DNA of 64,000 bases from Escherichia coli (GTDB taxonomy: Bacteria > Pseudomonadota > Gammaproteobacteria > Enterobacterales > Enterobacteriaceae): the NCBI RefSeq assembly GCF_003334385.1, contig NZ_QOWN01000021.1, one strand, 5' to 3'. The notes below the pieces were generated by a model that was not told where the DNA came from, ran no database searches, and saw only the letters and a program-made list of their open reading frames with translations. A program made the position numbers and the translations under genes. Of this stretch, positions 5,150 through 6,406 are shown one piece after another; the stretch's first letter is position 1; every line of letters begins with the position of its first letter.

Positions 5150-5295
5150 CTGAAGACGCTCTCTGAACGTTACAGGGTGATCAGTGAGATAAGTCTGTTA
5201 ATTATAAAGTAAACACTGTAAAGCAGAGTGTTTTATTTTTCATTCGCGCTGTGAATAAATAGATGAAAGTTATAGTAGCTGTCTGTAGTTATATA

Positions 5296-6198
5296 TCAAA
5301 AACTCTCATTTAGACGGTCAATAAATCGGGAGAACACCAAATTATTTAAAGAAGATTTATTATAGGAAATGTAAAGCTTTATTGAAGGTAACGGATGTTC
5401 TAGTTTTATCTCTTTTAAGTTAAGAAAGTCACGGTAGGAATTATAAAGTTCATAGGGGACTATTCCCAGTAAATCTGTAACTGCAATGCTATTAATGATT
5501 GTCAGCAAAGAGGAACCACGAAATGAGATTTTGCGATTCATAAATCTCTCGTCTATTTCCATTTGAATATCATCAACCCCTGCTGATTTAGATATTAATT
5601 GGGTGAACTCTTCTGCCATAATTTGTTCATAAGTGCTATTGTCAGTAATTCGTGGATGCCTATTACTACAAATTAGAGTATTGCGAATCGTATGCAATGG
5701 CATGCAAATGACGGAACGGCTGATCACTGGCATTTGGGTGATCACCAGATCGGCTTTGCGGTGAACCAACAGTTCTTCAGCATTCTCTGCTGACATGAGG
5801 ATATCATGGCACTCAATCTCGACAGAGGAATCTTGCCGTAGGCAGCGGATCAGCATACTATTATTAGAGCAAGAAATGAGCTGAGGGCCGTAGATAATAA
5901 AGTTTTTCTTTAGTTCGGACTTATTGACTATATTAATTGTTTGTTCAAGGCCTCTGAGATTTTTCTCAAGATGGTGATGCAGATTTAACCCTGTTGTCGT
6001 CGGCGCGATACCTTTTCCTGAGCGAATGAATAAAGGGTCATTAAATTGCGCACGTAAGCGTTGTAACGACTGGCTCACGGCTGATGGGGTGATATATAGT
6101 GATTCAGCAGCTTTGCTAATGCTTAAATGCTGGTAAATACACTCAAATATGACAAGAAGATTTAAGTCGAACTTTTTCAAGTCGTAGAGATTGGCCAT
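5296..6198 (-). CDS. ybdO: LysR-family transcriptional regulator
   Basis: 300-aa ORF with N-terminal LysR helix-turn-helix (ITPSAVSQSLQRLR); markedly AT-rich coding sequence. Confidence 0.85.
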   Translation of the reverse strand: MANLYDLKKFDLNLLVIFECIYQHLSISKAAESLYITPSAVSQSLQRLRAQFNDPLFIRSGKGIAPTTTGLNLHHHLEKNLRGLEQTINIVNKSELKKNFIIYGPQLISCSNNSMLIRCLRQDSSVEIECHDILMSAENAEELLVHRKADLVITQMPVISRSVICMPLHTIRNTLICSNRHPRITDNSTYEQIMAEEFTQLISKSAGVDDIQMEIDERFMNRKISFRGSSLLTIINSIAVTDLLGIVPYELYNSYRDFLNLKEIKLEHPLPSIKLYISYNKSSLNNLVFSRFIDRLNESF

Positions 6199-6406
6199 AC
6201 ACTACTCCGGTTATATTTTTCTTCCATGATATATTCACTTAATCAATGTTTTTTGCGTATATATTTTTATTGATTATGTTTTTTTGCTTAACTCAGGATT
6301 AAGTTTTTCTAAAATAGCACAGCCACTTAGGGCAGAGCGAGCAATTCATGCTTTTTTAGGATGGTTGAAAAGCAGGGATATAGTTCAACCATCCATGAAT
6401 TACCTT

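Follow-up and report, generated by a model that had tools for sequence, protein, structure and literature searches.

The AT-rich, H-NS-silenced regulator gene ybdO (citR) is a long-standing resident of its locus in the Enterobacteriaceae and has a candidate operator upstream of ybdNM

The DNA analysed here is a 64-kb stretch from Escherichia coli (hereafter, the window) that is 99.97% identical to K-12 MG1655, starting at genome position 631421 of that strain. Our subject is positions 5150-6406 of the window, which hold the LysR-type regulator gene ybdO, also called citR, and the spacers on either side of it. The genes ybdO, ybdN and ybdM lie in tandem, all on the minus strand, with ybdN and ybdM downstream of ybdO, and the locus is laid out as follows.

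3327..3956, minus strand: ybdM, ParB_N/IbrB-like, overlapping ybdN by 28 bp; a reported YbdO target
3929..5149, minus strand: ybdN, PAPS-reductase-like with DUF3440 (IbrA-like), carrying PF01507 and PF11922; a reported YbdO target
5150..5295, minus strand: ybdO-ybdN spacer, 34.2% GC, with a TATAAT at 5201-5206 and a T-N11-A dyad at 5242-5256
5296..6198, minus strand: ybdO (citR), encoding a 300-amino-acid LysR-type transcription factor with an N-terminal helix-turn-helix (HTH) and a C-terminal effector-binding domain
6199..6406, minus strand: ybdO-dsbG spacer, holding the ybdO promoter and 5' untranslated region (5'UTR), 32.2% GC
6407..7153: dsbG, the neighbouring gene upstream of ybdO

The ybdO coding sequence is 100% identical to MG1655 b0603. 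Its product scored 467.5 bits against the NCBIfam CitR equivalog model NF047710 (cut-off 400), with residues 1-294 aligned to a model of 295 positions, and was matched by 48 LysR-family NCBIfam models in all. The winged HTH domain PF00126 and the LysR substrate-binding domain PF03466 had been precomputed on cluster representatives 98-99% identical to YbdO, and with this architecture and a length of ~300 amino acids YbdO is a member of the LysR family. Scores against the YbeF model (NF008554; 165.5 bits) and the LeuO model (NF007063, the third-best NCBIfam model; 104.7 bits) fell below the respective cut-offs of 277 and 262, and by these comparisons YbdO is related to both families and a member of neither. 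The protein has been renamed CitR, "repressor of ybdNM" (PMC9068703), and RefSeq annotation already uses this name.

The first-pass annotation of this DNA described ybdO as visibly more AT-rich than the surrounding genes, and measurement bore this out for both GC content and codon adaptation. Two differences from MG1655 mark the source as a close K-12 relative rather than that strain itself: a 1-bp indel where the ybeM pseudogene lies (~26600-27500), and an IS5D element missing from between gltI and lnt (~56430). As they shift the MG1655 coordinates beyond ~26.5 kb, window genes were re-mapped by BLAST before gene statistics were computed. We found that the GC content of ybdO, 38.6%, is the lowest of the 59 scored window genes (others 51.1 ± 3.5%, z = -3.5), as is its codon-adaptation index of 0.562 (z = -2.5), an index built on the window's own pooled codon usage rather than on a standard reference set. 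Among the same 59 genes, ybdO ranks first for GC content at first codon positions (GC1, 43.5%), second for third positions (GC3, 39.9%) and 58th for classical rare codons (7.0%), and the amino-acid make-up of YbdO is shifted to match, with F+Y+M+I+N+K at 33% vs 24% and G+A+R+P at 16% vs 26%. The AT run that the annotation had quoted, attatttaaagaagatttattataggaaatg, lies at ~5342-5372, within the coding sequence. Positions 5150-6406 as a whole have a GC content of 37.1%, a value equally low in just 0.18% of 1257-bp windows, and the 1257-bp stretch of minimum GC in the entire 64 kb begins at 5181; the dinucleotide TpA makes up 8.5% of the block vs 4.6% of the window, placing it in the top 0.4%. 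The two spacers flanking ybdO are low in GC yet unexceptional, being sixth and seventh of 32 intergenic regions (mean 42.9%). Elsewhere in the window, a duplicated Sel1-repeat / DUF1266 / J-domain cluster at 44151-50244 (ybeQ, ybeR, djlB, ybeT, ybeU and djlC) has a GC content of 43-48%; its spacers are the window's most AT-rich (27.7-28.8% GC), and the density of H-NS-motif matches peaks near 44351.

To place ybdO in its family, one genome per species was scanned with a YbdO alignment and the neighbouring genes were typed, which gave 78 usable loci. In all 78 species representatives ybdO lies between ahpC/dsbG and either ybdN-ybdM or ybdL, and the genera with this arrangement include Escherichia, Citrobacter, Salmonella, Enterobacter, Klebsiella, Raoultella, Kluyvera, Leclercia, Trabulsiella, Franconibacter and Atlantibacter; in Salmonella enterica the gene order around ybdO is identical. 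Roughly 61 of the 78 loci have ybdO, ybdN and ybdM in tandem on one strand. Within E. coli, at least 5320 of 5426 complete genomes (~98%) carry ybdO. At all 78 loci ybdO has a lower GC content than the core genes on either side (mean 43.9% vs 55.0%), by a margin of 3.3 to 17.9 points. No tRNA genes were found in positions 1-12000 of the window and no repeats bounding ybdO, and its neighbours are all core genes, with no mobility genes among them. YbdO is the fastest-evolving protein of this neighbourhood, with an identity between Citrobacter and E. coli of 58-62%, compared with 83-86% for YbdN, 86-89% for DsbG and 98-99% for AhpC, and its first ~90 residues are highly conserved.

These distributions bear on the origin of the gene, which the first-pass annotation had taken from its composition to be a horizontally acquired regulator. 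A published study likewise classes ybdO among H-NS-bound horizontally transferred genes (PMC4720273). If ybdO were a recently acquired foreign gene, with H-NS as its xenogeneic silencer and a composition not yet ameliorated to that of the host, its atypical values at all three codon positions, poor codon usage and shifted amino-acid make-up would follow. However, ybdO is found at one and the same position in 78 species representatives and in S. enterica, and is present in ~98% of complete E. coli genomes; tRNA genes, bounding repeats and mobility genes are absent; the losses of ybdO are secondary insertion sequence (IS) events; and an AT deficit in 78 of 78 loci is unexpected if composition has been decaying to the host's after an ancient transfer. 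One loss that was inspected is an IS5-linked deletion. Of the features of a recent genomic island, ybdO thus displays the atypical composition, and neither the patchy distribution nor the mobility signatures. As the same deficit is found in all 78 species, atypical composition is not evidence of recency here, and the AT-richness has been long maintained rather than being a fresh foreign signature. We therefore give the recent-acquisition account very little credence, and regard a recent transfer as already largely refuted; the gene may have been acquired before the radiation of the family. Natural isolates show recurrent interruption of ybdO by IS1 (hits H1, H13, H33, H99 and H100), and in strain ET120 (L004) ybdO is truncated beside an IS5-like element, with the DNA from ybdN to the entF-proximal region gone.

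That ybdO is bound by H-NS, as the annotation had supposed, is borne out by published work (PMC4720273, PMC9141747). The gene served as a test case in a study whose H-NS profiles in K-12, SE11 and SE15 cover it, with H-NS occupying its upstream and/or coding regions in these strains (PMC4720273). Transcription of ybdO is basal, or nearly silent, in the wild type and higher in an hns mutant, lacZ fusions being among the evidence, and its start site lies 107 bp upstream of the ATG (PMC4720273), which we map to ~6305. Repression by H-NS requires both an upstream and a downstream regulatory element (PMC4720273), whose coordinates are converted here to those of the window.

6374..6448, minus strand: H-NS upstream regulatory element (URE), -250 to -176, overlapping the 3' end of dsbG (converted from PMC4720273)
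6035..6172, minus strand: H-NS downstream regulatory element (DRE), +27 to +164, within the ybdO coding region (converted from PMC4720273)
6359-6394: hairpin overlapping the URE, with 11-bp arms GGATGGTTGAA and TTCAACCATCC, read from the sequence and conserved in Escherichia

H-NS also shifts the ybdO promoter in an in vitro electrophoretic mobility shift assay, and acid pH lifts the repression, with quantitative reverse transcription PCR performed in K1 (PMC9141747). As at bgl and proU, paired URE and DRE flank the promoter and act jointly, a comparison drawn by the authors themselves (PMC4720273); unlike in bgl- and proU-style silencing, bridging or filament formation at ybdO is only presumed. 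The AT-rich, TpA-rich DNA that extends over the ybdO promoter and 5' coding region is of the kind expected for an H-NS-silenced gene. One observation weighs against this picture: the canonical H-NS motif TCGATAAATT is not enriched in the block, which has three matches with up to 2 mismatches, a number reached by 22% of windows. No Rfam family was found in 5150-6406. Outside the block, the Rfam small RNA family STnc70 matched at 7287-7380 on the plus strand, in the dsbG-ahpC spacer upstream of ahpC (42.7 bits; gathering score 40).

The AT-richness itself could be functionless, the outcome of passive AT-biased mutation in a rarely transcribed gene, with H-NS binding as its consequence. The low GC3 (39.9%), the frequent rare codons and the lowest adaptation in the window are what this account predicts, and basal expression of ybdO in the wild type (PMC4720273) agrees with it. 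Yet GC1 and GC content at second codon positions are low too, in a protein under strong purifying selection (ratio of nonsynonymous to synonymous divergence, dN/dS, 0.03), so that the amino-acid bias is maintained under constraint. The deficit also persists in 78 of 78 species across a wide range of host GC, and other low-expression genes of the window are less AT-rich than ybdO. On balance we consider the passive account unlikely. The AT-richness is most simply explained as maintained because H-NS silencing is part of ybdO regulation; AT-biased drift, in a gene that is seldom expressed, may add to the low GC content.

We next considered whether YbdO is the local regulator of ybdN and ybdM, as the annotation had suggested from its position. 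Transcript levels of both genes in a ybdO deletion have been published, and both were raised, ybdN by log2 5.5 and ybdM by log2 2.5 (PMC9068703). In the same report, a chromatin immunoprecipitation-exonuclease (ChIP-exo) peak was assigned to the ybdO promoter, one of just two ChIP-exo sites reported for YbdO (PMC9068703). The genes citCDEF were also reported to rise in the ybdO deletion, the cit genes being the other reported targets. The kps capsule promoter is a further promoter silenced by H-NS. Activation of kps by YbdO has been reported (PMC9141747).

Short elements conserved around ybdO lend a possible physical basis to this control. Between the two E. coli alleles described below the spacers share just 69% and 76% identity, and those of different genera are unalignable; nonetheless, the following elements are kept.

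6311-6316, minus strand: hexamer of an extended -10 of ybdO, TGcTATTTT, conserved across genera and fitting the published transcription start site
6287-6303 (+3 to +19): dyad CTTAA-N7-TTAAG in the ybdO 5'UTR, its TTAAG conserved across genera
6233-6247: dyad-like ATTGATTAAGTGAAT in the ybdO 5'UTR, a match to the strict dyad pattern
5201-5206, minus strand: TATAAT, a conserved -10 upstream of ybdN
5242-5256: T-N11-A dyad ATTCACAGCGCGAAT upstream of ybdN, ~55 bp ahead of the transcription start that the TATAAT predicts, near 5194

In Escherichia sp. MOD1-EC7003 (L007) the dyad before ybdN reads ATTTA...TAAAT, both arms having changed with their symmetry kept, and the identical symmetric form is found in the Salmonella arizonae representative (L028). 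Allowing at most one mismatch, we found ATTYA-N5-TRAAT in 34 of 61 ybdO-ybdN spacers, against 7.3 ± 2.4 expected from shuffled sequences (maximum 16 in 300 shuffles), and, in the 200 bp preceding ybdO, in 27 of 75 loci (9.4 ± 2.7 expected), although these loci come from related species and the shuffle test overstates their independence. Operator-like sequences of the LysR T-N11-A type are therefore present near both the ybdN and the ybdO promoters, and we infer that YbdO could bind them. Matches to ATTCA-N5-TGAAT also occur at 20704-20718 and 20758-20772, in the citC-dpiB spacer, and at 45260-45274, in the ybeQ-ybeR spacer, where the copy at 45260 is perfect. The citC-dpiB dyads are of note in view of the reported increase of citCDEF when ybdO is deleted. 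Where DNA is AT-rich, as here, chance matches to this pattern are more frequent. A weak AT-rich hairpin in the ybdO-ybdN spacer, AACACT...AGTGTT, was dropped as a candidate as it is not conserved in allele II (see below).

Several observations weigh against control of ybdNM by YbdO through this dyad. The divergent arrangement that is typical of LysR regulators, though not obligatory, is replaced here by a tandem one. The dyads CTTAA-N7-TTAAG and ATTCA-N5-TGAAT share little besides T-N11-A, and binding of both by one protein is for that reason unproven. Some 16 of the 78 loci have kept ybdO without ybdNM (the loci listed are L023, L031, L042, L044, L047, L070-L073, L075-L079 and L083), and a ybdNM-type module also occurs elsewhere with no LysR neighbour; since ybdO is kept without ybdNM and the module is found without a LysR gene, control of ybdNM is not YbdO's sole conserved role. 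In Leclercia, Silvania, Klebsiella indica, Raoultella terrigena, Franconibacter and Atlantibacter, ybdO stands next to ybdL with neither ybdN nor ybdM, and is still AT-rich relative to its flanks.

The remaining objections concern the deletion itself, and together they make up a different explanation, namely that the rise of ybdNM is a cis effect of the deletion, through a lost H-NS nucleation site or DRE and/or read-through from the cassette or from a derepressed ybdO promoter, rather than a consequence of losing the YbdO protein. The BW25113 deletions were probably cassette replacements of the Keio type, judging from the strain background, the type being unstated in the report (PMC9068703), whose text refers to no complementation and no plasmid. 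Expression of ybdNM could be raised in cis by transcription running on from a cassette promoter, or because an H-NS element inside the gene has been lost: no minus-strand terminator-like site was found between ybdO and ybdN, and the DRE lies inside the deleted coding region (PMC4720273). Since ybdO is nearly silent in the wild type, loss of its protein should matter little (PMC4720273). The ChIP-exo report names the ybdO promoter rather than that of ybdN, with no peak reported in the ybdO-ybdN spacer, and its ybdN counts are very low, with a base mean of 36 (PMC9068703). A purely cis effect does not account for a LysR-type dyad that is conserved before ybdN across genera whose spacers are otherwise unalignable, nor for the conserved TATAAT that ybdN has of its own, and ybdO was treated as a single cistron in earlier work (PMC4720273). 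We accordingly hold the cis explanation to be a minority possibility, although a serious one. The suggestion of local regulation thus stands in part: the increase in ybdN and ybdM transcripts on deletion of ybdO is published and a conserved dyad is present here, but the deletion is uncomplemented and effects in cis are possible. Behind the name "repressor" stand an uncomplemented deletion and a single ChIP-exo peak, which is limited evidence.

The products of the target module resemble IbrA and IbrB, co-activators of prophage eib genes, in that YbdN has PAPS_reduct and DUF3440 domains and YbdM has ParB_N. RefSeq calls YbdM "IbrB-like", and one source labels a YbdN orthologue "IbrA family prophage gene co-activator"; a difference is that ybdNM has a fixed place at a core locus of the chromosome and lies on neither a prophage nor an island. 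In two loci (L091 and L092, positions 4001-5838), a 67%-identical YbdN homologue and a ParB_N partner adjoin a fimbrial operon and gss and have no LysR gene next to them, and because of this placement we view the PAPS-reductase-like and ParB-like pair as a portable two-gene module. In strain UTAK-8 (L086), ybdM is frameshifted. Membership of YbdN and YbdM in an anti-phage defence system was rejected, the PADLOC matches being weak (DndC, E = 2e-5; BrxP, 1e-4). The YbdM protein was found to be 29-fold up when MG1655 harboured a CTX-M-15 plasmid, and overexpressing YbdM lowered the growth rate by 10% (PMC8764527); this rise hints at a response of ybdNM to envelope or plasmid stress.

The closest paralogues of YbdO, YbeF and LeuO, offer a comparison. 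YbeF, encoded in the same window at 29006-29959, is a paralogue with 30% identity to YbdO over 299 amino acids (E = 2e-41). Like ybdO, ybeF is low in GC (44.9%), has AT-rich spacers (28798-29005 and 29960-30217; 36-39% GC) and lies near citrate-lyase genes; unlike ybdO, its neighbours are lipA and lipB. LeuO belongs to the same LysR sub-branch as YbdO. The leuO gene is AT-rich, silenced by H-NS and not divergently paired with its target, and LeuO is an H-NS antagonist. Unlike for LeuO, general antagonism of H-NS by YbdO finds no support here, with just two ChIP-exo sites reported (PMC9068703).

The AT-rich block also exists in two forms within E. coli, as seen in a 50-bp mismatch map and in identity bands (loci L003 and L085-L089).

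~4900..6550: hyper-divergent two-allele block, spanning the 5' end of ybdN, ybdO, both spacers and the 3' end of dsbG

When positions 5150-6406 were compared with 5426 E. coli genomes, 3567, which carry the K-12-type allele, had an identity of at least 95% and 1774 of 78-80%, with 16 in between. A reciprocal search with the other allele was concordant, and the type strain ATCC 11775 carries allele II. Divergence of the block is 20.5-22.7% between alleles and 1.3-6.0% within a class, compared with 1.2-4.2% for the flanking DNA of these strains. Between alleles, synonymous sites are saturated (proportion of synonymous differences, pS, 0.70) and dN/dS is 0.03, whereas within classes the ybdO/ybdN ratio of pS is 1.0 (K-12 vs O157) or 0.7 (MS20655 vs MEW). 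All 34 amino-acid differences between the two alleles compared fall in residues 111-298, the effector domain, and their DNA-binding domains are identical. The edges of the block vary, lying at ~6300 in MEW and at ~6450-6550 in other strains. Allele I groups with Escherichia sp. MOD1-EC7003 (93.9%) and allele II with a divergent Escherichia (L084, 88.8%), and E. whittamii has a third lineage. As both alleles are ~28% away from that lineage, E. whittamii and E1V33 were rejected as sources from which either allele had introgressed, and a uniform acceleration of rate was rejected as the cause of the allele divergence by the within-class synonymous rates.

Variation in ybdO has previously been read as diversification facilitated by H-NS, whose binding would itself speed or permit divergence and so produce high substitution counts among strains (PMC4720273). 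By number of substitutions, ybdO is indeed one of the 50 highest-ranking H-NS-bound regions (PMC4720273), and the divergent block covers the same DNA as the AT-rich block to which H-NS binds. However, the divergence is bimodal, with 16 intermediates only, and the gap between classes far exceeds the variation within them; within classes ybdO is no faster than ybdN at synonymous sites. The between-allele dN/dS of 0.03 is no higher than that of most scored neighbours, and because of this low value we conclude that constraint on ybdO is not relaxed. Strain-dependent edges point to recombination, and the nearer relative of each allele is a different Escherichia lineage. Diversification driven by H-NS is thus improbable, and the pattern fits ancient alleles swapped by recombination rather than faster evolution under H-NS. 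Going further, we tentatively raise the possibility that the block is a long-lived and perhaps trans-species regulatory polymorphism, its lineages older than the species and moved by recombination, whose forms may differ in the signal sensed or in silencing. Under this polymorphism reading, two lineages would split E. coli ~2:1, each with its own promoter, H-NS elements, ybdN promoter region and effector-binding domain. If true, allele differences could underlie the opposite ybdO virulence phenotypes reported in different pathotypes, and ybdO would no longer serve as a showcase of H-NS-facilitated diversification.

Taken together, we consider it probable that ybdO is an old, vertically inherited LysR regulator gene, maintained as an AT-rich H-NS platform, whose product controls ybdNM through the dyad before ybdN. 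Under this explanation, ybdO/citR would belong to the LeuO/YbeF branch of LysR regulators and be inherited vertically in the Enterobacteriaceae; its persistently AT-rich promoter and coding sequence form a binding platform for H-NS, as the literature shows. Also according to published work, H-NS holds ybdO nearly silent through 6374-6448, upstream of the promoter, and 6035-6172, within the gene, this repression easing in early stationary phase and at acid pH, and YbdO binds at its own promoter in vivo by ChIP-exo (PMC9068703). The last steps are read from the sequence: YbdO would bind the ATTYA-N5-TRAAT dyad at 5242-5256, upstream of the TATAAT at 5201-5206, and by that route may control the downstream ybdNM, the published direction being repression, as judged from the uncomplemented deletion.

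The AT-rich, H-NS-silenced ybdO and its link to ybdNM are real, and already published and annotated. What the comparison across the family changes is their interpretation. The label "horizontally transferred gene" is for ybdO an artefact of composition, as the gene is a syntenic resident of the whole family, and its conserved AT-richness fits H-NS silencing as a maintained regulatory design. The case for YbdO as "repressor of ybdNM" is slender and vulnerable to artefacts in cis, and the conserved dyad provides a concrete candidate operator. Finally, the high "substitution rate" of ybdO reflects two ancient alleles and not faster evolution, which bears on the proposed link between H-NS and sequence diversity.

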